This document shows positions 1-20,406 of a DNA stretch of 21,177 nucleotides, in pieces. The stretch is from a virus (Duplodnaviria; Heunggongvirae; Uroviricota; Caudoviricetes), in IMG/VR virus record IMGVR_UViG_2531839102_000019, positions 1 through 21,177 of that record. One strand, 5' to 3'. The notes beneath the pieces were generated by a model. The model saw nothing but the letters and a program-made list of their open reading frames with translations, had not been told where the DNA came from and did not search any database. The translations under genes and the position numbers were made by a program. The stretch's first letter is position 1. Every line of letters begins with the position of its first letter.

Positions 1-189
1 ATGCCGGAAAATCGCAGGATTATTCTGGATAGTAAAGAATCCTGGTTAATAATCTGTGATAGTCAGTTGGGCCATTTAATGCGCAGTATGTATCAGGGAC
101 GCCGTTTTATTCAGCTGAATCTGGAAAAATTGAAAGGGGTACATGATGTCGCCTTGCCAGTGAAATGGGAATTCACACGAAGACAGTGA
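1..189 (+). CDS. 3' portion of an upstream ORF cut by the window edge (hypothetical, possibly virion gene)
   Basis: Open frame from position 1 to a stop at 187-189 on the same strand as the downstream tail genes; no recognisable motif. Confidence 0.3.
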   Translation: MPENRRIILDSKESWLIICDSQLGHLMRSMYQGRRFIQLNLEKLKGVHDVALPVKWEFTRRQ

Positions 190-303
190 ATAGCTTTCTG
201 TATACGGGAATGGCGAAAAATGGACTGTATGGTGTGAGTGTGAAACATCTTGCGTGTGCGGAGTGATGCTTCTCGTTGCTACAGCGGCAATGATAATGCA
301 GTG

Positions 304-328
304 AAAAAAGGGGAGCAATATGCTCCCC
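304..328 (-). terminator. Intrinsic terminator-like hairpin, minus-strand orientation
   Basis: Plus strand reads AAAAAA-GGGGAGCA-ATA-TGCTCCCC; on the minus strand this is an 8-bp GC-rich stem followed by a T6 run. Confidence 0.45.
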
Positions 329-405
329 CAAACCGAAAGAAAATTGCAATAATCAATGAAGTTATTTAGTCATCATCAGAATGTCATGCAAGGCATTTTG
401 TTTCA

Positions 406-2109
406 GTGATGCCGATCGCGATTTTAGCGAATTCCATCATAAATCCCCTGATTTTTAAGCCTGAAGCAGTCAAAGGAATTTCTATGCCCTATATCGATAT
501 CACCACGATGCGTGGGATGATGCCGCGCGTTGTGACATCCATGCTGCCCGAGCATTCCGCTGTACTGGCGGAGGACTGCCATTTCCGGTTTGGTGTTATT
601 ACACCAGAACGTCAGATATCCGGGGTTGAGAAAACATTCACAATTAAGCCAAAAACAATTTTTCATTACCGTGACGATTTCTGGTTTGCATGGCCGGATG
701 TGGTGGATGTGATCCGCAGTCCGATCGCTCAGGACCCCCACGGGCGTATTTACTACACTGACGGGCGTTTTCCTAAAGTGACGGATGCGACTATTGCCAC
801 AAAAGGGGACGGGAATCACCCGACATCATCGTATCGTCTGGGGATCCCCGCGCCGACGACAGCTCCTGTCTGTACTGTTCAGCAGGGCGGTGATGTTTCT
901 GACGATAACCCGAATGATGATGAAACCCGGTTTTATACGGAAACCTTTGTCTCAGATTATGGTGAAGAAGGTCCGCCAGGTCCGGCGTCTCTGGAGGTAA
1001 CACTCCGTACTCCGGGAACTGCGGTACAACTGACGCTGGCTCCGGTGCCATTGCAGAATGCCAGTATTAAACGTCGCCGGATTTATCGCTCTGCATCAGG
1101 TGGAGGGGAGGCGGATTTTTTACTTGTGGCTGAACTGGATGCATCCGTGCTCAGTTACACGGACAAAATACCGGCGAAAAACCTTGGGCCTTCCCTGGCG
1201 ACATGGGATTACCTGCCGCCGCCAGAGAATATGACAGGCCTTTGCCTGATGGCTAACGGTATTGCCGCCGGGTTTGCCGGTAATGAAGTGATGTTTTCGG
1301 AAGCGTATCTGCCGTATGCATGGCCGGAAGTGAATCGTCACACGACGGCAGAAGATATTGTAGCTATCTGTCCGCTGGGAACGTCACTGGTGGTGGCGAC
1401 AAAGGGGGAGCCTTATTTGTTCAGTGGGGTATCACCGTCCACAATTTCTGGTTCCAAAATCCCTTCAATGCAGGCGTGTCTGAGCAGGCGGAGTATGGTT
1501 GCGATGGAGGGTTTTGTGCTGTATGCAGGAACAAATGGCCTGGTGTCTGTTGATGCAAACGGTAATGTCGCGCTGGCGACGGAACAGATTGTTTCACCGG
1601 AACAGTGGCAGAGTCAGTTTAATCCGGCCTCCATTGTGGCTTATCCCTGGCGTGGTGAATACATTGCCTGTTACACGAAACCGGATGGTAAGCAGGATGT
1701 GTTTGTATTCAGTCCGGTGAACATGGATATCCGTTATCTCAGTACACCGTTTGACTGCGCATGGGTTGATCTCGCGAAAGATATGATGCGCGTGGTGACA
1801 GGAGACAAAATGTCAGTGCTTGCCGGGGGGGCTCTGCCCTCCACGATAAGGTGGCATTCAAAAATTTTTTCATTACCTGAAAGAACCTCTTTTTCCTGTA
1901 TCAGGGTGAAATCTCCGGCGCCTGAGCGGGTGGGGATCACCATTATGGCTGATGATGTTCCTGTGATTCATTTTGCGCCGGGTACGTTTAAGGGAAGTGT
2001 GGTGAGACTTCCGGCAGCAACCGGGCAAAACTGGCAGGTGATGGTATCCGGATTCGGGCAGGTGGAACGAATAACCCTGAGTACATCAATGTCGGAGATG
2101 CCGGTATGA
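406..2109 (+). CDS. Putative phage tail fiber / host-recognition protein
   Basis: 1,704-nt ORF; alternative start ATG at 484 has AAAGGA 6 nt upstream; stop overlaps the next start (ATGA); sits directly upstream of a J-like C-terminal ORF and lom. Function is inferred from context. Confidence 0.55.
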   Translation: MMPIAILANSIINPLIFKPEAVKGISMPYIDITTMRGMMPRVVTSMLPEHSAVLAEDCHFRFGVITPERQISGVEKTFTIKPKTIFHYRDDFWFAWPDVVDVIRSPIAQDPHGRIYYTDGRFPKVTDATIATKGDGNHPTSSYRLGIPAPTTAPVCTVQQGGDVSDDNPNDDETRFYTETFVSDYGEEGPPGPASLEVTLRTPGTAVQLTLAPVPLQNASIKRRRIYRSASGGGEADFLLVAELDASVLSYTDKIPAKNLGPSLATWDYLPPPENMTGLCLMANGIAAGFAGNEVMFSEAYLPYAWPEVNRHTTAEDIVAICPLGTSLVVATKGEPYLFSGVSPSTISGSKIPSMQACLSRRSMVAMEGFVLYAGTNGLVSVDANGNVALATEQIVSPEQWQSQFNPASIVAYPWRGEYIACYTKPDGKQDVFVFSPVNMDIRYLSTPFDCAWVDLAKDMMRVVTGDKMSVLAGGALPSTIRWHSKIFSLPERTSFSCIRVKSPAPERVGITIMADDVPVIHFAPGTFKGSVVRLPAATGQNWQVMVSGFGQVERITLSTSMSEMPV

Positions 2110-3374
2110 CCAGAAAACCGTGGCGTGCGGGGAAGGATTTATCCACTGTTGTGGAGAATATGGAAATTGGCACCGGGCAGCGTGGTGACGGACGTCACGC
2201 ATTTGTGACCCGTGAGGAACTGGTTGGTCTTAAACTCGCCCGGCGTCGAACATCGGGTGGTGCCTCATATGCACTGAATCCGGGTATTGAGATTGACAGT
2301 ACTTTAATGACTGTTGATTTTCCCACAAAACCGCTGAATTTTAAGGCGACCGGTGGATTTGGCTCGGTTCTTCTTGAATGGGATATGCCTAATTATCGCG
2401 GACATTCACTGACTGAAATCTGGCGGGGTACGGAGGATGACCTTGCTGATGCAGTGCTGGTTGCCACGACGCCGGGGCAGGTTTACGGCGATCCGGTTGA
2501 CCCTGGCTGGTCGGGATTTTACTGGATACGTTTTGTTAACGCGGCAGGAGTGAAAGGTCCATGGAATGCTGAAAAAGGCACTCAGGCACAAACACAGATC
2601 GGCGTGAAGGCCATCATTGACCAGATCCGCGATGAGGCTGCAAAGTCGCCGGTTGTGTCCGAGCTGCGTAAAGAAATAAAAAACGCGCAGGGGCAGGCTG
2701 TAAAGGATGCTGCAATTAAGACAACCGAAGTTGTAGGGACTCTCAGGGAAGAAACGACAAGAACGATTGGTGGTATTGAAACCCGCATTAGCACACTGGA
2801 TTCGTCAACCAGTGAATCGCTTAATGAGGTCGACAAGCGCATCACTAAATTGGATAAAGAAGGCGGTGAAGCTTTTCTTGCAATGTGGTCAAAAAAAGCG
2901 GGAGTTGATGGTATCACTGCGGGGATCGGGATTGTCGCCGGAAAAGACAGTGAAGGCAGGCCTGTAAGTCAGGTTGCAATTTCTGCGTCGCAGTTGTTTG
3001 TCTTTGACCCGAATAATCCGGATAACACAGCCTATCCGTTTGCGGTATCAGGTGGCAAGGTAGTGATCCCGAAAGCGATGATTTATGACGCGGTGATTGA
3101 AACACTGGTGTCGCGGAAGGTTGTGGCGGATGAGGTAAAAGCCGGGGTAAGTATCACTTCGCCAGTTATCCGGAGTGCCGTTATTCAGAACGGAAACTTT
3201 CAGGTTGATTCTCAGGGTAACCTGAATATTGGAGGCCTTTTCAGTGTTACGTCACAAGGGCAACTGACAATTCGTTACTCTAATCAGAATGTAGGACTGG
3301 TGATCCGCAATGATAAAATTGAGGTTTATGACCAGAATGGACGACTGGCTGTTCGCATAGGCAGATTACGCTGA
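2106..3374 (+). CDS. Host specificity protein J-like C-terminal module with FN3-like domain
   Basis: Translation contains a fibronectin-III-like segment (LNFKATGGFGSVLLEWDMP...EIWRGTEDD...YWIRFVNAAGVKGPW), then a coiled-coil-like stretch and a beta-rich C-terminus, matching the C-terminal half of lambda J-type proteins as I remember them. Confidence 0.55.
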   Translation: MTRKPWRAGKDLSTVVENMEIGTGQRGDGRHAFVTREELVGLKLARRRTSGGASYALNPGIEIDSTLMTVDFPTKPLNFKATGGFGSVLLEWDMPNYRGHSLTEIWRGTEDDLADAVLVATTPGQVYGDPVDPGWSGFYWIRFVNAAGVKGPWNAEKGTQAQTQIGVKAIIDQIRDEAAKSPVVSELRKEIKNAQGQAVKDAAIKTTEVVGTLREETTRTIGGIETRISTLDSSTSESLNEVDKRITKLDKEGGEAFLAMWSKKAGVDGITAGIGIVAGKDSEGRPVSQVAISASQLFVFDPNNPDNTAYPFAVSGGKVVIPKAMIYDAVIETLVSRKVVADEVKAGVSITSPVIRSAVIQNGNFQVDSQGNLNIGGLFSVTSQGQLTIRYSNQNVGLVIRNDKIEVYDQNGRLAVRIGRLR

Positions 3375-3388
3375 TCAGGAGGTGAGTA

Positions 3389-3667
3389 TTGGAATACGGT
3401 TTTGCCATTTATAACAGAAATAACGTTAATGTTACGGGCGTGCTGACTCCAGTATTTTTCCTGGACAGATTTACAGCGGAGTCTGGCTCAAAGACGTACA
3501 CTAATAAACCCGACGGGAAATCATTGCAGGCTGTATGTTGTTTATTTCCCTGGAATAATGTATTTGCGGATCGGAAAGTACCGAAGATAACCATTAATGA
3601 CAATACGGTGACGTGGTCGAATCTTGAGCAGGGTATGGGATCTTATATTTATACATTCTGGGGATAA
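3389..3667 (+). CDS. Hypothetical protein, first copy of a repeated YG-x-I-Y/M-N-P-D-G domain
   Basis: TTG start 6 nt after AGGAGG; AT-rich relative to flanks; N-terminal motif MEYGFAIYNRNN recurs twice in the next ORF. Confidence 0.45.
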   Translation: MEYGFAIYNRNNVNVTGVLTPVFFLDRFTAESGSKTYTNKPDGKSLQAVCCLFPWNNVFADRKVPKITINDNTVTWSNLEQGMGSYIYTFWG

Positions 3668-3672
3668 GTGTT

Positions 3673-4290
3673 ATGTACGGTTTGAGCATTATGAAGCCGG
3701 ATGGCAGCGTATGGATAAGTCCAGGTTTTACGCCGCAGTGTCTGATCAACAAAGGCACCATACCGGCGACTGAAAAGTCTTTTTTTAAAACATCAATCCC
3801 GTCAGGCAAAAGTTGTTTTTTCTTTATCAGAACAGAGAAGAAGGCCGATGTCATGTACACGCATGAACAGATTGATGGATATCATGCACTAAGGCTTCAT
3901 GTAATTGTCAGGGGAACGAACCCTGGTGTTACGACGGTTTATGCTTTCGCGAATATGGTTACTCCACCTTCTGAGTATGGTATCGCCATGTATAACCCGG
4001 ACGGTGAGATGATTTATCATGGCGAAATGATGCTGCTTGACGCGAAGTTAATACCTGTTGATATCAAATTTGAAAAGGACCTTGGATATCCATGCGCAAT
4101 CATGCCTGCACTGGTCGGGTATTATAACTGGAAAAGAACTCCTTATGATCGACCGATTTATACCACATCCACTGGTGCTACAGGAAATAAAATATATTCC
4201 TGTGAGCATTATTCCGGTGGTGCAACATGGGATATTCGAAAGCCGTATATAGATAAGGTCCTGGTTATTAATACATCAGTATATGATTAG
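3673..4290 (+). CDS. Hypothetical protein carrying two further copies of the same domain
   Basis: ATG start 5 nt after the previous stop, in a different frame; motifs MYGLSIMKPDGS and EYGIAMYNPDGEM; AT-rich. Confidence 0.55.
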   Translation: MYGLSIMKPDGSVWISPGFTPQCLINKGTIPATEKSFFKTSIPSGKSCFFFIRTEKKADVMYTHEQIDGYHALRLHVIVRGTNPGVTTVYAFANMVTPPSEYGIAMYNPDGEMIYHGEMMLLDAKLIPVDIKFEKDLGYPCAIMPALVGYYNWKRTPYDRPIYTTSTGATGNKIYSCEHYSGGATWDIRKPYIDKVLVINTSVYD

Positions 4291-4380
4291 TTGAAGCGAG
4301 TCTTTAATATTCATTTAAAATGTCTAAAAAGATGTATTATTAAAAAGTTTAGCGTGTTATCTGAATACAGGATATCTTAA

Positions 4381-5115
4381 ATGAAGAGTATAGCAACACT
4401 GGTTGTGTGTGCAATCTCCGGGATTGCCTGTGTAAATTTATCTGCACATGCAGCAGAAGGAGAGCATACAATTTCTCTGGGGTATGCGCACTTTCAGTTT
4501 CCGGGACTGAAGGATTTTGTAAAGGATGCGACTGCTCATAACAGGGAGACTTTCAGTCATTTCGTCAACAGAAACTACTTTTCTTCATTGGGCGAATATA
4601 CAGATGGTCGGGTCAGTGGATATGAAGGCAAGGATAAAAATCCACAGGGCATTAATATCAGGTATCGCTACGAGATAACGGATGATTTTGGCGTTATCAC
4701 CTCTTTTACATGGACGCGTTCTCTCACTAACTCACAGACATTTATTGATGTGCAGTCAGCCGATCATACCAGGAAGATTAAGAATCCGGCAGCTTCTGCC
4801 AGAACGGATATCAGGGCGAATTACTGGAGTCTGTTAGCGGGGCCTTCATGGCGGGTTAATCAGTACATGAGTTTATATGCGATGGCAGGGATGGGCGTTG
4901 CTAAAGTTAGCGCTGACCTGAAAATTAAGGACAATATTAACAGTAGTGGCGGATTTTCTGAAAGCAACAGCACGAAAAAAACCTCCCTTGCGTGGGCTGC
5001 AGGTGCACAGTTTAACCTGAATGAGAGTGTTACACTGGATGTGGCTTACGAAGGTTCCGGCTCTGGCGACTGGCGCACGAGTGGCGTTACTGCTGGCATT
5101 GGCCTGAAATTCTGA
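4381..5115 (+). CDS. lom: Lom/Ail/PagC/OmpX-family outer-membrane beta-barrel protein
   Basis: N-terminal signal peptide (MKSIATLVVCAISGIACVNLSAHA); C-terminus LAWAAGAQFNLNESVTLDVAYEGSGSGDWRTSGVTAGIGLKF closely resembles the lambda Lom C-terminus as I recall it; lies downstream of tail genes as in lambda. Confidence 0.85.
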   Translation: MKSIATLVVCAISGIACVNLSAHAAEGEHTISLGYAHFQFPGLKDFVKDATAHNRETFSHFVNRNYFSSLGEYTDGRVSGYEGKDKNPQGINIRYRYEITDDFGVITSFTWTRSLTNSQTFIDVQSADHTRKIKNPAASARTDIRANYWSLLAGPSWRVNQYMSLYAMAGMGVAKVSADLKIKDNINSSGGFSESNSTKKTSLAWAAGAQFNLNESVTLDVAYEGSGSGDWRTSGVTAGIGLKF

Positions 5116-5139
5116 CCTGTATCCGGTAACCGTTTACTA

Positions 5140-5162
5140 CCCGCTGTGATGGCGGGTTTTTT
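5140..5162 (+). terminator. Rho-independent terminator after lom
   Basis: CCCGC-TGTGATG-GCGGG hairpin (extendable by an A:T pair) followed by TTTTTT. Confidence 0.7.
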
Positions 5163-5347
5163 ATTGCCCGTACAGGGCAAAAACCGTAAATTATGCGTGG
5201 GTGCCTTTCGGCTGATGGCTGGAGGGTGAACCTGAAGGCCTGATGTGGAAAGGCCCCGAGTCAACTTAACGTTAACCCGAGGCCCTAACACTTCGTACCT
5301 TAAGCAAGTAGAAGGTTAGCGCCTCTCTGTAAAAGGAGTCAAGCGCT

Positions 5348-5488
5348 ATGTCGCAAAAATCGCTTATCACCGTCACAATTTGCATGACGGTTATCTTCAC
5401 CATCTGGATGTTGCACGGTTCACTGTGTGAGTTCCGGCTGAATTTGTGGGGAGCGGAGTTTGCGGCGTTCTTACAGTGTAAGCAGTAG
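5348..5488 (+). CDS. Hok/Gef-family type I toxin-like small membrane protein (46 aa)
   Basis: AAGGAG 12 nt upstream of ATG; translation MSQKSLITVTICMTVIFTIWMLHGSLCEFRLNLWGAEFAAFLQCKQ has an N-terminal transmembrane helix and the SLCE-R...G-E-AAF pattern I associate with Hok/Gef. Confidence 0.55.
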   Translation: MSQKSLITVTICMTVIFTIWMLHGSLCEFRLNLWGAEFAAFLQCKQ

Positions 5489-5497
5489 GAAAACCGC

Positions 5498-5519
5498 GAC
5501 GGGGACGAGAGTCCCCGTC
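5498..5519 (+). other. Perfect 9-bp stem-loop with GAGA loop in the 3' UTR of the Hok-like ORF
   Basis: GACGGGGAC-GAGA-GTCCCCGTC; no following U-tract, so more likely an mRNA folding/stability element than a terminator. Confidence 0.4.
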
Positions 5520-5568
5520 AACTGGTTGCTGAGGTTCAGCCGATATGGCACCCGTTTCAGGTGAGAGA

Positions 5569-5946
5569 ATGAACGATAAAATTCTCTGGTATATGCAGCG
5601 TGTTGTGAGAAATTCCCGCAACCCTGAATTTATGAATGAAGTTAAAGACGCCTGCCTTAAAAAGCAGGCGTTTTGTTTTGAGGCACCTGATGGCTTTTTG
5701 GTGCTGCGTTCTGTGCTCAGTGCTGATGGTATCCCTTATGTTCTGGTGTTGCTGGGCGTGTGTACGGGGAGTAACAGCGTTGAGCGTTACCTGCCGGAGG
5801 TGAAGACATTAACCCATCTGGCTGGCGGACGCTGGGCTGAGTTCCATACGGCAAGGCGGGGATTTATCCGGCTGGGAAAACGACTGGGCTTTGAGCGAAT
5901 GCCGGATGATGAGGATGGCTTCATGGTGTTCAGGATAGCGGTCTGA
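5569..5946 (+). CDS. Hypothetical protein (125 aa)
   Basis: ATG preceded by GGTGAGAG; ORF ends just before the terminator at 6000; no motif recognised. Confidence 0.55.
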   Translation: MNDKILWYMQRVVRNSRNPEFMNEVKDACLKKQAFCFEAPDGFLVLRSVLSADGIPYVLVLLGVCTGSNSVERYLPEVKTLTHLAGGRWAEFHTARRGFIRLGKRLGFERMPDDEDGFMVFRIAV

Positions 5947-5999
5947 CTGCTACAGTTTTCATCATTGTGTTTAAACCAACATTGTAATTCACATTCTGA

Positions 6000-6021
6000 C
6001 CCTGCTCCGGCAGGGTTTTTT
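6000..6021 (+). terminator. Rho-independent terminator
   Basis: CCCTGC-TCCG-GCAGGG followed by TTTTTT, 18 nt upstream of the next start codon. Confidence 0.7.
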
Positions 6022-6039
6022 GTTATCCAGGGGGCCATT

Positions 6040-6693
6040 ATGGGTGGAAGTAAAGGCGGTGGTGATACCAAAGTAAAACCAACAGCAGCGCAAATAGCAC
6101 AGGAAGAAGTGGCCTGGAAAGGGTGGCAGGATTACAAAAATATCCTCCGCCCGGCAGAAGATAACTTCATGGAAAAGGTCGATGACCTTAACAGTGAACA
6201 GCAGTACGAAAATATTGCTGGCACAACAAATCTTGGTTATCAGAAACAGTTTGGTGAAGCGCGGAAGGAGCTTGCGGGTAATCTTGCTCAGTCCGGCGTT
6301 GACCCATCCAGTGGTCGTTTTAATGCGGTAATGGATGCAAATCAAAGCGACCAGGTGACCGGGCAGATTGACACAACCACACGGGGGCAGGTGTCGCAGG
6401 CAGATAAATATATTGCCGGGCTACAGGATGTTGCCGCGCTCGGTTCCGGTCAGAAGGCGGATGCGTTACAGAGTTTTAACTCTCTGGCAGACAGCAGTCT
6501 GGCAAAAGCCAAATCAGATGCACAGGCGGCGTTTACGAAACAACAGGGGCGCGCCTCTCTTGTTGGCGCTGGTCTTGGCGCGGTTGGGGCTTATGCAATG
6601 CATAAGGCTGGCGGTAGCGGAAGTGGAGGCTCTAAAACGCCAGGTACCGGCGCTAACGCTATTCAGAATCGGGCTCAGAACTGGAGGCTGTAA
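6040..6693 (+). CDS. Operon gene 1: Gly/Ala/Gln-rich protein with C-terminal glycine-zipper hydrophobic segment (217 aa); putative virion-associated
   Basis: ATG at 6040 after an AGGGGG-type ribosome-binding site; the longer 5965 start would run through the terminator; C-terminus LVGAGLGAVGAYAMHKAGGSGSGG; 2-nt gap to the next gene. Confidence 0.7.
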   Translation: MGGSKGGGDTKVKPTAAQIAQEEVAWKGWQDYKNILRPAEDNFMEKVDDLNSEQQYENIAGTTNLGYQKQFGEARKELAGNLAQSGVDPSSGRFNAVMDANQSDQVTGQIDTTTRGQVSQADKYIAGLQDVAALGSGQKADALQSFNSLADSSLAKAKSDAQAAFTKQQGRASLVGAGLGAVGAYAMHKAGGSGSGGSKTPGTGANAIQNRAQNWRL

Positions 6694-6695
6694 TT

Positions 6696-7142
6696 ATGGA
6701 GTATGGCAAATACGAAACTCTCGCAAGGGCTGGTTATTCAGGCGCTGGCAGGCCATGGGGTGACTGGGAAACCTCTGCCGCGTTGACACGCCAACAATAC
6801 GACGACTGGCGCACCAGATATTTGCCTCGTATAGCAAGGCTGGCTGACCTTGGTGAGAACAACAGTCTGATGAATGCACAGCTTGCCCGGGTGGGCGGCC
6901 TTGCCACTTCCAGTCTCCGTACAGCGCAGATGGCACAGGATAACCAGATGGCGAGATACGGGGTAAACCGCCCGGATAATCCTAACAGTAACACGCTGGG
7001 TTTACGTAATGCTCTGGCAATTGCTGGCGCGAAAAATGGTATCCGTGAAGCAGAGCAGGATCGCCAGATGAACATACTGACGGGTGCTTCTGCACCTGCA
7101 AGACAGCAACTGAGTGTTGGTGGACAACTGGTGTCAGCGTAA
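6696..7142 (+). CDS. Operon gene 2: hypothetical protein (148 aa)
   Basis: Start 2 nt after the upstream stop; Ala/Arg/Gln-rich, predicted helical. Confidence 0.7.
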   Translation: MEYGKYETLARAGYSGAGRPWGDWETSAALTRQQYDDWRTRYLPRIARLADLGENNSLMNAQLARVGGLATSSLRTAQMAQDNQMARYGVNRPDNPNSNTLGLRNALAIAGAKNGIREAEQDRQMNILTGASAPARQQLSVGGQLVSA

Positions 7143-7151
7143 GGGGGACAT

Positions 7152-7403
7152 ATGGGATACGGTTTACTGGATATTGCGAATCAGTCGCGGCGTGAGGCAT
7201 TACAGGGAATAAGTGATGCCGACAGACGACGTGAAGAAATTGAGGCTGTGAACAAGCAGATGGCGGCGCAACAGAAAGCGCAGCACAAGCAGAATATCGG
7301 TACGGGAATCGGTACGGGGGCGGCTATTGGCGCATCCGTTGGTGGTCCTGTTGGCGCTGTTGCTGGTGCAGTAATTGGCGGCATTGCTGGTTCTTTGTTT
7401 TAA
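7152..7403 (+). CDS. Operon gene 3: small protein with C-terminal glycine-zipper transmembrane segment (83 aa)
   Basis: AAGGGGGA ribosome-binding site overlapping the upstream stop; C-terminus GTGIGTGAAIGASVGGPVGAVAGAVIGGIAGSLF. Confidence 0.7.
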   Translation: MGYGLLDIANQSRREALQGISDADRRREEIEAVNKQMAAQQKAQHKQNIGTGIGTGAAIGASVGGPVGAVAGAVIGGIAGSLF

Positions 7404-7413
7404 GGAGTAGTGA

Positions 7414-8676
7414 ATGAGCGGATTTGCACAGGGGTTACTTGCAGGATTCAGCACCGTTGACCAGGCAATGACCCGTCGTAAGGAGCTTGGTTTGCGAGAA
7501 GCACAGCTTGCTCAGCAACAGAAAAATAACGAGCGCGATTTTGAATTTGCGCAGTCTCAGTTTGAACATAATAAAGACGTTGATCAGCGGAACTTTGATT
7601 ACAGAGCCAAAGTTGATGACCGCAATTACGCACTGCAGGAAAGGGAGTTTAACGCCAATCAGAATTACCGGAATGCGTCACTGGGTATGGAGCAGCAGCG
7701 ACTCCAGTTGCAGAAATACAACCAGCGACGGCTTGAGTATAACGATATGCTGGCGCGCGATCAGCCTGTGATGGCTGCGCTTGGAAAGGCTGTGGATGCT
7801 GGTGATCGGGATGCGGCAATGCATCTTTACGGGCAGTTGTCAGAGGGTAATCCGCTGAGGCTGATGGCGAATGATGGCTATGCTGCGAAAGCGGGGCAGG
7901 CCGTGAACAACCTGCAAAAAATCTTTGATGACAAGCCGGACAGGGCGATCGCTTCACTCAATACCCCGGAAAGTCTTGATGCGCTTTCCGGCGTGTTTGC
8001 CCCGGAACTGCAACAGCGTATTGGCATGCCCGATTCAACCGGGAAAAAGACAATAAAAGAGGCCAGGATTGGCAGTATCGTACCGGCACAGCAGGAAGGG
8101 TACGTACTTATCGGCCTTGATCTCACATACAGCGATGGCTCCACCGCACATAAACCTGTAACAGAATACGGCAGTGCGCACCCTGATGATCAAACCGTGC
8201 TGGCGATACCCGTTGATAAGGCTATCGCTCAGGTCAGGGATCGCAGCAAATTTGCAGAGATATCGAAAAATTATGGTTATTTTATGCCGAAGCAGCAGGG
8301 ACTTTCTCTGAAAGAGCTTCAGAAGGAAGCCAGCAAAGTAGTGGCTCAGGCGATCAAGGATGGCCGTGATGCTCAGTCTGCGAAGGATGAGTTTTTTGCA
8401 GCGCATGATTCACAGCCGCATCAACAGAAAATTCAGCAACAGAAAACCCAACAGCTTTTACAGAAGTGGCAGACGTGGGCGGCGGGCGATCCGGTTAAAC
8501 AGGAGTTTGTAAAAGAGGCTGCCGCCAATGCGCCTGCTTTGCTGGAACCTGGTCGTGAAAAGGAGGTGGAAATTTATTACCAGAATCACCTCCGGGATAA
8601 AAAGGCAGAGCATGAAAAGGCGCTGGATTATAGCGCTTCCGCATCTGCCGATAAGATCAGAAGCTGGATAAAGTAA
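7414..8676 (+). CDS. Operon gene 4: Gln-rich coiled-coil-like protein (420 aa)
   Basis: GGAG ribosome-binding site then ATG 10 nt after the upstream stop; Q-rich tracts (HQQKIQQQKTQQLLQKWQTW); no enzymatic motif recognised. Confidence 0.75.
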   Translation: MSGFAQGLLAGFSTVDQAMTRRKELGLREAQLAQQQKNNERDFEFAQSQFEHNKDVDQRNFDYRAKVDDRNYALQEREFNANQNYRNASLGMEQQRLQLQKYNQRRLEYNDMLARDQPVMAALGKAVDAGDRDAAMHLYGQLSEGNPLRLMANDGYAAKAGQAVNNLQKIFDDKPDRAIASLNTPESLDALSGVFAPELQQRIGMPDSTGKKTIKEARIGSIVPAQQEGYVLIGLDLTYSDGSTAHKPVTEYGSAHPDDQTVLAIPVDKAIAQVRDRSKFAEISKNYGYFMPKQQGLSLKELQKEASKVVAQAIKDGRDAQSAKDEFFAAHDSQPHQQKIQQQKTQQLLQKWQTWAAGDPVKQEFVKEAAANAPALLEPGREKEVEIYYQNHLRDKKAEHEKALDYSASASADKIRSWIK

Positions 8677-8721
8677 AAGTATGCGGCAGTAACGCGCTCC
8701 CCGTTAATATCGTTCACTTAC

Positions 8722-8748
8722 GCCCGACCATCGTGTCGGGCTTTTTTT
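8722..8748 (+). terminator. Strong rho-independent terminator immediately upstream of the giant ORF
   Basis: GCCCGAC-CATCGT-GTCGGGC perfect 7-bp stem followed by TTTTTTT; only 12 nt (containing GGAG) separate it from the ATG at 8761. Confidence 0.7.
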
Positions 8749-8760
8749 ACTGGAGTCTGT

Positions 8761-11700
8761 ATGGCTTTTTCAGATGAGCAGCGCCCTGAAGCGCAATTGG
8801 GTAACCAGAACCGCAGCAGCCTGAACATTAAGCAGCCGGGAGAAAATTACTGGCAGGATTTTTTCAGCAACCCGCAGAATGCCATTGATCACAGCACATC
8901 GTTCAGCCTCGGTGATGTATTGCCAACAATGGGTAAAGGTTTCGCCCAGTCCGTCCGGGGAACAGGGGAAATGGCCCGTGGACTCGGTGATGCGATGATT
9001 CAGAGCCCGGTAAAAACAGGGGTGCGTATTTTAAATGAGTTCAGCCGTATGGGGCTGCCGGGTGTCGCAACTGTGCAGGATATTTTTGCCGGTGGCAGCA
9101 GGGGGGCTGATGAGGTCATCGATACCCTGCCTGATGGCAAAAACGCGGTTACTGATACTGTCGGTAAAGGTCTGAAGGCAACCGGTAAGGCTGTCAGTGA
9201 TGGTGCCAAAGCCACTGATGAATGGCTGACCGGTAAGATGTCGCCGGGTGCAGTTCGTGCGCTGAATACGCCGATGACCGAAGGCTATAATGATTCTGCG
9301 GTCTGGGTGGCGAAGGGTGTAAACCTGATTGGTGCGCTTGTACCTGATATGGTTGCTGGCGGTGTGGCTAGAAAGGTGGGTGATGTCACACTGCGAAAAA
9401 TGCTGACCGCCGGGCTGGAGAAAAAATACATCGCGGCAGGGATGCAGCCGGAAAGAGCCACGGCACTGGCAGCAGAAGCTGTCGATAAAAAAATGCCGGA
9501 TTTATTCCAGGCGGGCCTGATCACCCATTCCACTGTAAGTGCACAGGGGCAGAGTGCAATGGCGGCAGCAGATGCTGTTCTTAATGCTGATTACTCTGAG
9601 CTGGCGCAGTCACCGAAATTTCAGCAGACGTTTTTGTCCATTGACGCCGACCCGCAGCACGCACAGCTTACTGATCGCCAGAAAATGGATCTGGCAAAAG
9701 AGCGTGTTGCCGATGAGGTGCGCGCGCAGCTGGCAACCGATCCTGAATTGCTGGCTGTGAATGCCATGGCGGCAAAACTGGGTGACGCACAACTGTTTAA
9801 TCTGGTGACACGAGGCACAGCGAAGACCGTTAAAAGCGGCATTGTCAGAAATGCCACGGAACAGGGGGCGATTAATGCGGCGCAGGGCGGCTATTCACGC
9901 TATCAGGAAAACACGGCATTGCGTGAGACCGCCGGAATGGGGGTGTCACCGTGGGAGGGCGTGGCTGACGCAACGATCGAAGGTGCAGCCTTTGGTGCTG
10001 CGATGGGGGCTCCATTCGGTGCGGTTGCCGGATATCGTGGCAGACGTCAGGCCGCAGAAGAAACCGCCATGCGTGATGCTGAAACCGTGCAGCAGGACGA
10101 CGCAGCCCCGCAACCAGAATCTGTTGATCCGGTGGCGCAGCAGCGTGAATCCATGCAGGGCATGAATCGCGAGCAGCTTCTGGAGCAGTATGCTGATGCG
10201 GATATGGCAACAGAGGGTGACGCATCCGCAGCTCATCGCCGGGAAGCTGCCAGCCAGTTGTTGAATGAACTGGACGAACAGGCGAAGCGACAGGCTGTGA
10301 TGAATGAGCTGAAGGCGAAGCCGCGTTCTGAACTGCTTGAGGAATACCGCAGACTCAGCCAGAAAGAGGGGCGCACCGAGACTGAAGAACAACAGTTTCA
10401 GGCAATACGAGAAGTCATTCGCCCACAACAGGAAGTGACGCCGGAAGCACAGTCACAGCCTGAAAATGCGGAGGATGGTAACGGGAGCATTTACCCGACG
10501 GTGCGGTTCCGGGACCCGAATGAAGTCCGCATTGAAATTAACGGGAATGGTGCGTCCAGACCAGCGGAACGCATTGAGAAGGTGCGCCCGGACAACCGTT
10601 ATTTCACGGATGAGAAAAGCGCCATGGGGAGTGATGTTTTCCGTAATGCCGCCGCCACCGGCCTGAAACCGTCCGTAGTGAAGAAAGGCGAGAATCAGTA
10701 TGCCGTTGAAATGGATAATCCTGCGTTCTCTGAAGATGTGGCAACGGAAACCATTAACACCCTGGCTGACGGAGAGCGTATTGCTGATGCTGACCCGATG
10801 GAGCAGCCCGCGTTCATGCGTGACCCGCGATTCCGTGGTTTCACGGGGGATGATACGGAGGTACAGGCCCGCCTTGCCCGTGGCAACGCGCCGACGGCAG
10901 AGGAGCTTGTACGTTCACAGATGGCTGAAGGTGATGCCGGTCCGACAGCACAGGAGTTAACTGAGCGTCCACGCCTGCCCGCTCCCGGCGATATTCATCC
11001 CGGACAGGGATATCCGTTACCGGGAGAAGTGGCGCGTACGCCGGATGAAAATCAGGCCGGACGTGGTGGTCGTTTTACCACAACCGGTGAGGTTAAGGGC
11101 CAGAGTTTCCAGAAAGGACAAGCTCCGGCACCGGAAAACGCCGCTGGTCGCCAGGGGGAAACACTCGAGGGTGACATGGTTCGTCGTGGTCTGCCGTCAC
11201 CGGATGCGCAGAACGCGACAGCACCGGTACGTGAAGGGCTACCGGCTCCTGACATTGCGCGTAATGTTCGTATGCCTCAGCCTGAATCACTTCCCCGCAC
11301 TGTACGGGACTCACTGCCTGAGCTTGCACAGCAGGCAGAAGTACGCCGACAGGCCGGAGGAAATCGTGACATCCCGCAGCCTGAGACAATCGCACCTGAA
11401 TCTGAAACAACTGTCTCTACTGACAGGGAAGCTACCGTGCGCGGAGGTGAAGTCAGGGGCAAAAAAATTGAAGACTTTGGTGAAGAAATTAAGGGCGCGG
11501 CAAAACACCGTTATGCACAGCTTGCTGAAACACTGGGTAAAACGCTGGAAGACAGGGATTATGCCACTCAGCCGCTGAGCAAACTGTTCCCGAAACCGGA
11601 CTACGCAAAACTGGCGAACGAAGGTGCTGATGCTGATACCCTGGCAATGATAGCGCTGTATCGTAGCGATATTCCGGCGAAGACGAAACACAATACGGCA

Positions 11701-14700
11701 GGCTGGGGGGAGAGCATAAAAAAAGTACGACACAGTGTATCGGAAATGCTGAACGGAACGGTCAGCGCGAAACGCCTCGCAGAATGGATGGAAGGTAGAA
11801 TGCCCTCCCGTTACGCGGATACCTGGCAACTGTTACGCACTCTGCCACCCTCACAGATGGACAGGGCTTCTGCTTATCGGGTGGTATCGGGTGTGTATCA
11901 GGCGGCAGGAGGGAAGCGTTACGATCCGCCACAGAAACTTTATTCACTGCGCAATAAGGACAATAAGGGTAGTAACCTCTTTTTCTCGGAAAGCAGGGAT
12001 GAATTACTGACAAAGGCGAAAGTCTGGTTTGCAGAGCAGGAGGAAAAATCACAGGCGAAAGGTGATGAAAAAACAGCGCCTTCACCGGATGACAAAATCC
12101 GCTTTGACGTTTACCGGAATACCCGCAGTGGCGATATTTTTATCGCTTACGGTAAAAACAAAATGCGGGTGAGAGGTGGCTTTAAGTCAGCCAGTGATGC
12201 GCGTAAGTACATTGATTCACATCGTGATGAGCTTGTTCGTCATGTGAAGGATATGCGGGAGATTTCGCGTGAGGAGCAGCGTAACGCCACCAACCGCGAC
12301 CGTACCGGACCAGAACGCCGTAAAGGGGATGTTTCACCGGAGCAGTTCAGTGATGCGTTTGGTTTCCGTGGTGTGCAGTTTGGTAACTACGTGGAAGGTC
12401 CGCGTCGTCAGGCTGATTTGAACCGGGCTTATGACTCGCTGCATGACCTTGCGGAAGTACTGAATGTACCGACAAAAGCGCTTTCCCTGAACGGTCGTCT
12501 TGGCCTGGCATTTGGTGCCCGTGGTAAGGGTAAGGCGGCGGCACACTATGAGTCAGGTGAGGTGGCAATCAACCTGACAAAAGGTAACGGACCGGGTGCG
12601 CTGGCGCACGAATGGTTCCATTCTCTGGATAATTATTTTGGTCGTTATGACGTTTCCAATGACGGGAAAATTACGTCAGGTGGCGACTTTATGACGGAAG
12701 CACAGCGTGTCAGGCGCATATTTAAAGACGGCAGGTATGTTGATGCTGAATATCCGGTACGTCAGGAGGTTTACGACGCTTTTAAAGGTGTGATTCAGGC
12801 CATTAAAAACAGTGACATGCCGCGTCGTTCAGCGCTTCTCGATGAGGTGCGCTCAAAACCGTACTGGTCAACGGATGTTGAAATGGCGGCGCGTGCCTTT
12901 GAGCGTTATGTTCAGGATAAAGCGCGTACGGCTGGCGTGGAGAATGATTATCTGGTCAATATCCGTAAGGCACCTGAGCACAACACAGATAACACCTGGG
13001 CTTATCCGACGAATGCGGAACTGGATGGCGGTATTCGTGAGGCATTCGATCACCTGTTCCGCACCCTGAAAACCCGTGAGACGGACAAGGGCGTTGCGTT
13101 TTATTCCCGTAAGGGCGTTACCCGTACACCTGAAGGTAATCTCATTTCGGATGTTAACCGTAGTGCGGAAGCTAAAGGCAGCCCGGTCCCGCAGGTTGAA
13201 GCGGTTGCCCGTGGCGTGATGAGCGGCATTAAGGACAGTGACCTGAAGGTCCGTGTGGTGAAGTCACAGAAAGAGGCTGAAGCGCTGGCGGGCGAATCGT
13301 TCGATGGTTACGGCAGGGTGCACGCATTCTATCGTCCGGATAAACGAGAAATTGTCCTGGTGGCGGATAACATCCCTGACGGGCGGACCGTACGCGAGAA
13401 GTTGCGTCACGAGATTATCCACCATGCCATGGAGCATGTTGTCACGCCAGCGGAATATCAGACGATTATCAAAACCGTGCTGAAAACCCGCGACAGTGAT
13501 AACGCCACCATCCGTGAAGCCTGGCGTAAGGTTGATGCGTCCTATGGTAAGGAATCACCGGAAGTGCAGGCGGGTGAATTTCTGGCACATATGGCGGAGA
13601 AACAGCCGAATAAATTCGTGGCGGCATGGGAGCGTGTTGTTGCCCTGGTCAAAGGGGTACTGCGTCGTACGGGGTTACTGAAGCCGACGGAACTGAACGA
13701 TATCAGACTTGTTCGCGAGACCATCCGTACGTTAGGCCAGCGTGTGCGGGAAGGTTACACGCCGCGTGAGGATGGCGCGGACGCATCGTCTCAGTACTCC
13801 CGTAGTGGTAAACCTGATCCGTTCAAAGTGCCGGAAGGTGAGGGCGAGCGTTATCGTGATGACCTTGCCAGAATGATGAAGTCTCTGCGCTCAACGGATT
13901 TAACGGTAAACATCGGGCGTACGCCGCCGGTATTGCGTCACCTTGGCGCACCAGATTTGCCGCTGGTTATCTCCCGCGACACTGTGCGTAAGGCCACCAA
14001 TGGTGTGAAACATGTGGTGCCGATGGATGTTATCGAGAGACTACCGGAACTGATGCACGATCCGGATGCAATTTACCGTTCCGCGACAGAAAGAAACGCG
14101 GTTGTGATGCTGCTTGATGCCGTGGATAAAAATGGTGATCCGGTGGTGTCAGCGGTACACATGAAGGCTGTCCGGTCGCGCCTGGAAATCAACAAGGTGG
14201 CATCTGTTTACGGTACGGAAAACGGGAAAAAACTGAAGAGTATGGAAATGACCGGTTTAACGTTGTACCGGAGAGAAAAATTAAGCCGCGATAACCTTCT
14301 GCACAGAGGGCTCCAATTGCCCAAAGGGGAACATTCTTATCGCGGCTCTGTTGATAAAATACTCTATCCTGAAGATATTCGCAAGGGGCCGTATTACTCC
14401 CGCACCAGCAGTCTGACGCCGGAAGAGACAATTGCATCCCGTTTTGTTCGCCAGATGCAGGATAAATTCCAGGTGCTGAAGGCGGTGCAGGAGAATATCC
14501 GTAAAACTGGCGGAAAAATAGATGACAGCAATAACGCCTATATGGCTGAAGAACTCTTCCACGGGAAGGCGGAAAACGACCTGAACGTAATGAAGGAGCG
14601 CTACGTTCAGCCGCTGGCCAAATTGCTGGCGGACTACAAAATTGCGCAGGCCGATCTGGATGAGTACCTCTACGCCCGTCACGCGCCGGAACGTAACGCG

Positions 14701-17139: not shown

Positions 17140-17147
17140 CAGAACAT

Positions 17148-17169
17148 GCCCCGTACGGAAGTGCGGGGC
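17148..17169. other. Stem-loop between the convergent plus and minus transcription units
   Basis: GCCCCGTAC-GGAA-GTGCGGGGC (one G:U pair); no U-tract on either strand. Confidence 0.35.
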
Positions 17170-17266
17170 TGATTAAGAAATAAACACTCATTGACCTGTA
17201 ATAACTGGAGCTATTAACATATAGTCAGAAAGAGCATTTCATGTGATACAGAGAGCCGATTTATGT

Positions 17267-19481: not shown

Positions 19482-20111
19482 TCAGAATTCAAATTGTCTT
19501 GCTCTTAGTTGCGCCAGCATACTTCTGGCCCTATGCACCATATAGTTGGCGGGATCAAGTTTTGCTGCTTCGCGGAGCAATGTGTCGCGAGTCCGGTTGG
19601 TTATATGACGAGTTTCGTAGGTCAGATCAAACAGCTTTCCATAGTAATCAGAGTTCAGTTCTCTCATGACGGGGTATAGCTGTTTACTGAGTTGTTGTGC
19701 TTTTTCCATCCAGAGCTGCATGTAGCAAAGGAGGATGATTTCCTCGTCTGTGAATTGTTGCTGTGGTTCTGCTTGTGCCGACTGCATGTTGCGAAGTTTC
19801 TTTTCGCACTCGATGAAGTATCTGCGTATCTGTCGGCCTTTTTCGTTACGCTCTACCATCGCCGTTTCTTTGGCTGTATCGAGGGTAAGGTGGTAGTCTT
19901 TTTTCCCTCGCCCATAACCTATTTCCCGTTTCTGGGAAATAGCTATATAGTCCTGATTTTCAACGAATCCGTACTCTTCAATACGTTCTGTAATCCACGA
20001 TGCAAAGCGTTTACCTACTCCAAGAAAAGTATGTAAATCACGGGCATTAACGAGAAGAGTGGTTTCGTTGGCGATAGTGCCGTTGAATACGGGGATGAGT
20101 TGACTGGTCAT
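19482..20111 (-). CDS. Phage antirepressor-like protein (AntA/AntB-type N-terminal domain)
   Basis: N-terminus LIPVFNGT...VNARDLHTFLGVGKRFASWITERIEEYGFVENQDY fits the AntA-type pattern; AAGGAGG ribosome-binding site upstream of ATG at 20111. Confidence 0.7.
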   Translation of the reverse strand: MTSQLIPVFNGTIANETTLLVNARDLHTFLGVGKRFASWITERIEEYGFVENQDYIAISQKREIGYGRGKKDYHLTLDTAKETAMVERNEKGRQIRRYFIECEKKLRNMQSAQAEPQQQFTDEEIILLCYMQLWMEKAQQLSKQLYPVMRELNSDYYGKLFDLTYETRHITNRTRDTLLREAAKLDPANYMVHRARSMLAQLRARQFEF

Positions 20112-20139: not shown

Positions 20140-20162
20140 ACCGCCAGTTAGTAGCTGGCGGT
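20140..20162. promoter_or_regulatory. Perfect 8-bp inverted repeat in the antirepressor leader (candidate operator or leader hairpin)
   Basis: ACCGCCAG-TTAGTAG-CTGGCGGT, 29 nt upstream of the antirepressor start on the minus strand; a TTGACA hexamer lies just upstream on that strand. Confidence 0.35.
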
Positions 20163-20406
20163 CGGGTGTCAACTGAGCCAAATAAGAAGCTCTGGGCATA
20201 TTCCCCTTGCGGGTGTTGTATTACGCCTCTCCACCCGACCTTTGTACGGATGTAACTATGCCAAATTGCAGGCATAAAAAAGCCGCAAAGCTATCGGGTG
20301 CGGAGACCGCTTATTTGTTCAGTGCGGTCAGTATGCGATAGCTCTGGAGGATTTGTCAATCAGCGGAATATTGATGAACGGGTAACGGTAAATGCCTCAT
20401 CCAGAA

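Follow-up and report, generated by a model that had tools for sequence, protein, structure and literature searches.

The late genes of Shiga toxin (Stx) phages are transcribed from the promoter PR' and depend on read-through by the antiterminator Q (PMC7547250, PMC8065619). Qlambda is reported to form a nozzle at the exit channel for RNA, where it prevents terminator hairpins from forming (PMC9388147), and polymerase carrying Q has been reported to read through terminators (bioRxiv 10.1101/651190). The late regions of Stx phages also contain morons, which bring their own promoter and terminator (PMC8065619). Here we analyze the IMG/VR record IMGVR_UViG_2531839102_000019, a stretch of 21,177 nucleotides (nt) referred to as the window, and three intrinsic terminators within it, T1, T2 and T3. 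The window represents the distal late region of an E. coli prophage, a short-tailed member of the Stx family of the 933W/Sp5 type (Sepvirinae). T1, T2 and T3 are likely functional Rho-independent terminators in the distal part of a single Q-dependent late operon.

Structure and placement of the three terminators

T1, T2 and T3 each consist of a GC-rich hairpin followed immediately by a U-tract on the transcribed strand, as expected of Rho-independent terminators (Table 1). The opposite strand carries no U-tract at any of the three positions, which makes the terminators unidirectional. The hairpins begin close to the end of the preceding gene, with T1 starting 24 nt past the lom stop codon (5115) and the corresponding distances being 52 nt for T2 and 46 nt for T3. 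T2 is followed by a Shine-Dalgarno (SD) sequence, GGGGG, at 6030-6034 and the ATG at 6040, and T3 by the SD sequence GGAG at 8752-8755 and the ATG at 8761 of a giant open reading frame (ORF).

From the end of the U-run to the ATG there are only 18 nt at T2 and 12 nt at T3. Both gaps are taken up by the SD sequence, and a promoter scan found no sigma-70-like site in either of them. Candidates in or overlapping the gaps that were picked out by eye have spacers of 20-27 nt and were rejected. The first-pass annotation of this DNA had described three canonical coding-strand terminators, the last two so close to the next ATG that no promoter could fit. Hairpins and U-tracts were confirmed at all three positions, and the two distances proved exact.

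The same annotation had offered regulated hairpins as an alternative. This idea found no support, as the minimum free energy (MFE) folds of 85-89-nt segments keep each hairpin in every variant and contain no competing helix of a riboswitch-like antiterminator, in a search that was not exhaustive. A search of the whole window against Rfam at the gathering threshold returned no match within the range under study (5140-8760). A permissive search gave a sub-threshold sok match, described below, and chance matches (sX5 and GlmZ, on terminator stems) only.

We compared the three elements with chance expectation using a strict scan (stem of at least 6 bp with at least 4 GC pairs, loop of 3-8, and at least 5 T in 8). 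On the plus strand of positions 1-17200, T1, T2 and T3 are the sole matches, against 0.47 +/- 0.72 expected from dinucleotide shuffles; a count of three was reached in only 4 of 200 shuffled sequences. T1, T2 and T3 each lie within the intergenic share of this region, which amounts to 5.2%. With a looser scan of positions 3000-12000, 20 terminator-like sites were counted where 8.5 +/- 2.4 were expected.

Conservation among related loci

When IMG/VR was scanned with the 7414-8676 protein, 47 loci were recovered, with protein identities of 75-100%. T1, T2 and T3 are kept in every locus that has the corresponding region (46-47 loci), and their U-tracts are kept in all variants. Among T1 lineages, the 23 nt between the lom stop codon and the hairpin vary at up to 13 positions, and the hairpin itself shows a single change, from U.G to U-A, which strengthens the pair. 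Variation at T2 is restricted to the loop and to the length of the U-run (6 or 7). The T1 and T2 sequences are identical to those of long-sequenced phages of the VT2-Sakai type.

T3 sits in a strongly diverged intergenic region. Across its six distinct variants, 100% of the cells are paired, compared with 29-43% in slid controls, and compensatory substitutions have replaced both partners of two pairs (A-U to G-C and G-C to A-U). The sample is small and made up of close relatives, and the statistical power is modest; the direction is nevertheless clear, and the aligned variants point to selection on the structures of T1, T2 and T3.

Terminators along the late operons of relatives

Terminators of this kind are a general feature of the operon. 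PhiR12_3, a complete phage from ECOR13 and the closest phage record for the T3 region (98.4% identity), has nine intergenic plus-strand terminators along its late unit by the strict scan. One follows a small ORF at 11660, one precedes holin S, and four follow the genes for the endolysin, the portal, the major capsid protein (about 15 nt from the next ATG) and the protein encoded next (about 14 nt from the next ATG); the remaining three are T1, T2 and T3. In Sp5 of strain Sakai, the intergenic terminators number six and follow the portal and capsid genes, ECs1224, lom, ECs1237 and ECs1241. Terminators of the same quality that abut the next ribosome-binding site (RBS) are thus the rule in this operon and not a peculiarity of the giant gene. 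The three terminators singled out by the first-pass annotation are real, but they are not special to this spot.

Several genes located behind such terminators are indispensable. ECs1222, 1226, 1228, 1232, 1233, 1241 and 1242 are essential for Sp5 morphogenesis (Mondal et al., PMC5155283), and this set includes the homologues of 7414-8676 (ECs1241) and of the giant ORF (ECs1242), both of which are essential for tail formation (PMC5155283). To reach these essential genes, polymerase has to pass between one and six canonical terminators in succession, and there is no space for a promoter; their expression would therefore require a termination-resistant polymerase.

Antitermination and published expression data

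A candidate source of such a polymerase is found in the relatives. In PhiR12_3, T1-T3 are located about 29 to 32.5 kb downstream of a gene with the Pfam domain Phage_antitermQ (E-value 5e-48), and nearly all genes annotated from this Q gene to the giant ORF are on the plus strand. Phages of the Sp5 type also have a Q gene upstream of the late genes.

Published expression data are in line with this arrangement. In phi24B lysogens, lom (CM18) shows strong expression that stays level on induction and is not coupled to the phage circuit, whereas expression of the giant ORF (CM7, 49148-57571) is seen upon induction only (PMC3342100). The authors of that study were surprised by the induction-linkage of the giant ORF, given its position downstream of lom (PMC3342100). 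An expressed lom followed by an induction-only giant ORF would be explained by the intervening T1-T3. In strain Sakai, lomW (ECs1236) belongs to a published list of genes whose expression changes in the early stationary phase, a list that does not include the genes next to it on the downstream side (PMC2241611).

These observations bear on what the first-pass annotation had proposed about function. Its view that the downstream genes should be silent unless polymerase is made resistant by a Q-type factor is supported by the Q gene of PhiR12_3, by the Stx-phage literature and by the giant ORF of phi24B, and may well hold here. Its view of the giant gene as part of a late-expressed operon agrees with the induction-linkage in phi24B, although there is no separate giant operon and the gene belongs to the tail end of one late unit. 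The insulation of accessory genes that it had suggested is supported for lom by the phi24B and Sakai data; T2 comes after ORF 5569-5946 and not after hok, which has its own 3' structure.

A model for T1, T2 and T3 in lysogeny and induction

In a lysogen, ordinary polymerase coming from lom, from the hok/sok-like locus or from any stray promoter within 6040-8676 would halt at the hairpins. T1 would terminate the lom transcript and keep it out of the hok leader, where an exact 5' end would be needed for the closure that keeps hok silent. T2 would stop transcription that passes hok and ORF 5569-5946, and T2 and T3 together would act as successive barriers, leaving the tail/ejection module and the giant gene untranscribed. 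Upon induction, Q-loaded polymerase from PR', about 30 kb upstream in PhiR12_3, would form no terminator hairpins in its exit channel and would pass T1-T3 as well as the similar terminators further upstream. Because a Q-loaded polymerase needs no re-initiation, a terminator may sit directly against the next RBS. We infer that termination would occur at T1-T3 in lysogens and that read-through would depend on Q.

Four points weigh against this model. The window contains neither a Q gene nor PR'. The promoters of lom and hok are predictions. We found no convincing lysogenic promoter feeding T3, which makes its role in lysogeny the weakest part of the model. Finally, Vibrio phage 1F273_PE002 has just 13 nt between its ORF79-like gene and its giant gene, and the terminator at the T3 position is absent.

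The last point belongs to a broader comparison. By tblastn against phage records, a module syntenic with that of the Stx phages was identified in the Vibrio podoviruses 252E42.2, the D70 group and 1F273_PE002 (L054 1976-12741; L055; L056); its products, the homologues of 6040-6693, 7152-7403, 7414-8676 and the giant protein, are 28-43% identical. In 252E42.2 and D70, a canonical terminator separates the ORF79-like gene from the giant gene, and the 85-nt spacer after it contains a promoter-like TTCACC-17-TATGAT. Taken together with the 13-nt gap in 1F273_PE002, this indicates that a boundary at the T3 position recurs but is not obligatory. Unlike 252E42.2 and D70, the Stx phages leave no room for a promoter at this point, which is consistent with reliance on Q.

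Alternative explanations

The terminators could instead be leaky and act mainly as lytic-phase attenuators or 3'-end stabilisers, producing a descending mRNA gradient with capsid before them and a low-copy giant protein after them. Such a role may coexist with the Q-dependent model, and as the main explanation we consider it rather unlikely. It would suit the terminators of equal quality after the portal and major capsid genes of relatives and a giant protein that is presumably low in copy number, and hairpins could conceivably form behind the Q-modified polymerase and protect processed 3' ends. Q-loaded polymerase is nevertheless described as termination-deficient (PMC9388147), from which little attenuation would be expected, and the gene ahead of T1 is a non-structural accessory gene whose expression does not need induction. 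It is improbable that the hairpins are mere relics of mosaic module or moron boundaries, carried along by recombination and with no present selective role. T1 and T2 do bracket an insertion/deletion hotspot, divergence shifts sharply just upstream of T3, and the terminator at the T3 position is missing in one distant relative, all of which a relic would accommodate. A relic would not, however, be expected to keep its pairing through compensatory substitutions, as T3 does, to stay conserved while its flanks diverge, as the T1 and T2 hairpins do, or to retain its U-tract in every variant.

Least probable of all is an unrecognised promoter after each terminator, overlapping the hairpin or placed in upstream coding sequence, that would turn the downstream genes into Q-independent units. 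The promoter-like site in the 85-nt spacer of 252E42.2 and D70 shows what such an arrangement might look like. The gaps here measure only 18 and 12 nt, are filled by SD sequences and have no sigma-70-like match; any promoter lying upstream would be terminated by the hairpin itself; and the giant gene of phi24B is induction-linked (PMC3342100).

T1 and the adjoining hok/sok-like module

The region upstream of lom is AT-rich (GC 0.32 at 4200-4399) and offers weak -35/-10 candidates only. Downstream of T1, the predicted hok promoter leads into a hok-type mRNA (Table 1). The Rfam sok/hok-leader model RF01794 aligns from 5199 with 35.6 bits (E-value 1.7e-5), below its gathering score of 59, and given this sub-gathering score the locus is to be called hok/sok-like. 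In the predicted fold of the 359-nt RNA 5199-5557, the 5' end (5199-5214) pairs with 5538-5554 (z-score -6.6), a closure of the type formed in hok mRNAs by the tac and fbi elements. By sequence and fold prediction, the locus thus appears to combine a Hok/Gef ORF, a structured leader, an antisense RNA and 5'-3' closure of the mRNA.

The promoter of the antisense RNA at the Sok position is the published p24B_1 (Table 1). The -35 element of p24B_1, TTGACT, is the reverse complement of 5338-5343, and its -10 element, CGCTAACCT, is the reverse complement of 5313-5321. In the predicted fold of the RNA from this promoter, the 5' tail is single-stranded and leads into a hairpin of 16 bp with UUU after it (z-score -5.4), which agrees with a Sok antitoxin RNA in both architecture and position. 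The published 'microRNA-size' RNA 24B_1 is the reverse complement of 5255-5274 and represents the loop and 3' arm of this hairpin. Neither of the two 24B_1 papers mentions hok/sok.

The homology arms of the phi24B-delta-24B_1 mutant are exact matches to 5097-5147 and 5338-5387, which places the published deletion at 5148-5337. Lost with it are the 3' arm and U-tract of T1, along with the predicted hok promoter, all of the leader, the antisense RNA and the hok SD sequence. By primer comparison, the complementing plasmid spans about 5037-5602, that is, T1 and the entire module. The published phenotypes of the mutant are poorer lysogenisation, faster induction and globally raised phage transcripts. 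The 24B_1 authors, who used ARNold on the lom-vb_24B_43 region and on a longer fragment containing lom, had reported no Rho-independent terminator in either (PMC4426718).

A lom transcript reading through T1 would form a 5' extension incompatible with hok closure, and T1 plausibly protects hok regulation too. As a tentative possibility, T1 may be a working part of the hok/sok-like module that fixes the 5' context of the hok mRNA, with 24B_1 a piece of the Sok-position hairpin and the delta-24B_1 phenotypes reflecting the loss of a terminator and a toxin-antitoxin pair and not of a microRNA-like regulator; separately, T2 and T3 might be graded attenuators even for Q-modified polymerase.

In the table of Hfq-bound RNAs obtained by crosslinking and analysis of cDNA (CRAC) by Tree et al. 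(2014), there is no sense-strand small RNA at T1-T3; that pipeline dropped sense peaks lying up to 100 nt from a gene. The same authors list EcOnc53 (Sakai 1292386-1292438, minus strand; 'not detected' by northern blot), which corresponds to 5115-5167 and runs antisense across T1. A minus-strand transcript that starts at the Sok-like promoter and extends this far may account for it. The locus goes unmentioned in Hücker 2017.

Related loci occur elsewhere in these phages. PhiR12_3 has a second hok/sok-like locus (L052 6985-7320; leader GGGTGCTTGAGGCTG...), annotated as 'host killer protein' and located immediately downstream of Q, where Stx phages have PR'/tR' and stx. The right arm of Sp5 contains a further MokC/HokC copy (ECs1245).

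The interval between T1 and T2

The T1-T2 interval is a hotspot of insertion and deletion. In several relatives (L002 13257-14848; L015-L016), the hok fbi-like element is immediately followed, at 5557/5560, by an inserted 1.6-kb gene for a YadA-like adhesin, which has an AT-rich leader; this is a true presence/absence polymorphism. This insertion point suggests that ORF133 starts at the ATG at 5569 or later and not at 5545; the ATG at 5569 is probably the start. Other relatives carry deletions corresponding to 5974-6740 (L026) or 5622-7639 (L041, L047). The lom-hok-ORF133 segment is kept in all close relatives, and in the syntenic Vibrio phages neither lom nor hok is annotated upstream of the 6040-like gene. 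Within ORF 5569-5946, at 5647-5672 and about 95 nt past the predicted 3' end of the hok mRNA, lies a GC-rich hairpin of 9-10 bp with T-runs on both strands, resembling a two-way terminator. In the D70 record, a minus-strand gene annotated as an HNH endonuclease is inserted in the module shared with the Vibrio phages.

Prophage identity and gene order

The 5 kb at 4300-9300 match Escherichia phage ArgO145 over the full length with 94% identity and Stx phages of the VT2-Sakai (Sp5) type with 94.7%. At a coverage of at least 80%, this segment is matched by 198 phage records and by about 414 complete genomes of E. coli. The 7414-8676 protein has a 100% identical match (P0001) that NCBI names as an E. 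coli protein, and a homologue search with it returned E. coli proteins only, at identities of at least 78%. The sequence at the right end of the window agrees with the right end of Sp5 and with the Sakai chromosome next to it, and the prophage therefore appears to occupy the same chromosomal site as Sp5. The gene order in Table 1 was built from ORFs, Pfam, PHROGs and the annotations of relatives.

Table 1. Terminators, RNA features and genes of the window (free energy, dG, in kcal/mol)
Feature	Position	Strand	Description
T1, intrinsic terminator	5139-5162	+	stem A5139-U5157, 7 bp; loop GUGAU; U-run 5157-5162; dG -10.8
T2, intrinsic terminator	5998-6024	+	stem G5998-U6017, 8 bp; tetraloop UCCG; U-run 6016-6021, then GUU; dG -14.5
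T3, intrinsic terminator	8722-8748	+	stem G8722-C8741, 7 bp; loop CAUCGU (6 nt); U7 8742-8748; dG -12.4
hok promoter (predicted)	5164-5192	+	-35 TTGCCC, 17-nt spacer, -10 TAAATT; directly 3' of T1
hok-type mRNA (predicted)	5199-5557	+	leader; ORF 5348-5488; 3' stem-loop 5497-5520; fbi-like element 5538-5554
Sok-position antisense RNA and promoter	5244-5343	-	published p24B_1 (PMC4426718)
Tail-assembly gene	406-2109	+	homologue of Sp5 ORF70
Tail-assembly gene	2106-3374	+	homologue of Sp5 ORF71
Small membrane-protein gene	3389-3667	+	
Small membrane-protein gene	3673-4290	+	
lom, Ail/Lom outer-membrane protein	4381-5115	+	Pfam Ail_Lom, E-value 1.5e-32
Hok/Gef ORF	5348-5488	+	Pfam HOK_GEF, E-value 4e-8
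ORF133, conserved ORF of unknown function	5569-5946 (longest ORF from 5545)	+	phrog_610; ECs1237 homologue
Late gene	6040-6693	+	module syntenic with Vibrio podoviruses
Late gene	6696-7142	+	same module
Late gene	7152-7403	+	same module
Late gene	7414-8676	+	same module; homologue of Sp5 ORF79/ECs1241
Giant ORF, polyvalent virion protein, 2792 aa	8761-17139	+	Pfam LPD5, LPD1, MuF_C, LPD38; homologue of Sp5 ORF80/ECs1242

The giant ORF is the final gene of the late operon. A GC-rich hairpin, GCCCCGTACGGAAGTGCGGGGC, is located at 17148-17170, 9 nt past its stop codon, and lacks a U-tract, so that the late operon ends without a canonical intrinsic terminator. A search of genome contigs with the N-terminus of the giant protein found only two short contigs labelled Xanthomonas pisi. 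These contigs, from strain DSM 18956 (NZ_JPLE01000183.1, 801 nt; NZ_JPLE01000269.1, 376 nt), encode pieces of the giant protein that are 90-94% identical and are probably contamination of that assembly.

At the other end of the window, in the gap before 406-2109, a strong minus-strand intrinsic terminator at 309-329 (GGGGGAGCATATTGCTCCCCT followed by T5, dG -15.6) points against the late operon; PhiR12_3 has it too. The only above-gathering Rfam match in the window is sRNA-Xcc1 (RF02221, 69.1 bits, E-value 6e-11) at 20152-20240 on the minus strand. It lies just upstream of a minus-strand antirepressor-like ORF (19482-20111) and overlaps the equivalent of the Hfq-bound EcOnc43 (Sakai 1308356-1308404, minus strand).

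Comparison with known systems

We found no paper describing T1, T2 and T3 individually. The locus offers a clean example of how lambdoid prophages combine accessory genes expressed in the lysogen with a silent late operon of 30-40 kb, in which unidirectional terminators would insulate and Q would override. For the annotation of Stx phages, it provides exact coordinates for six or more late-operon terminators in phages of the Sp5 type, and it implies that the gene for the giant polyvalent protein would not be expressible without Q. Of more interest to the Stx-phage field is the 24B_1 locus, which is a hok/sok-like module, and the fact that the delta-24B_1 mutant also destroys the lom terminator.

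With the hok/sok type I loci, such as parB of plasmid R1 and the chromosomal hok homologues, the module shares a Hok/Gef ORF, a long leader, an antisense promoter with a hairpin RNA, and closure. It differs in its Rfam score (35.6 against 59 bits) and in its location within the late operon of a phage, between T1 and T2.

In T7, the terminator T-phi follows gene 10, a highly expressed structural gene. The terminators after the portal and major capsid genes of the relatives resemble it in position, but T7 uses its own polymerase and terminates partially, whereas here the host polymerase is presumed to be Q-modified.

The combination of lom and T1 resembles the morons of lambdoid phages (e.g., lambda lom and bor), reportedly the subject of work by Juhala et al. 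in 2000 (cited in PMC4104026; morons are described in PMC8065619), as an accessory gene that lies within a late operon, is followed by a factor-independent terminator of its own, and whose phi24B homologue is expressed in the lysogen; the insertion polymorphism of the YadA-like gene is a further likeness. In contrast, T2 and T3 flank no accessory genes, T3 stands between two essential tail-assembly genes, and the promoter of lom is predicted.

A close match is the Q-dependent late operon of lambdoid phages (lambda, 21, 82 and 933W/Sp5), in which PR'-tR' is combined with processive antitermination. The likeness lies in one long unit with nearly all genes on one strand and in internal intrinsic terminators that Q-loaded polymerase bypasses, as would be expected here by analogy. 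The difference is one of location, since T1-T3 stand, by the distances in PhiR12_3, some 29 to 32.5 kb past Q and are not the regulatory tR' itself. The architecture as a whole is that of a textbook Q-dependent lambdoid late operon with embedded morons, and is already known.

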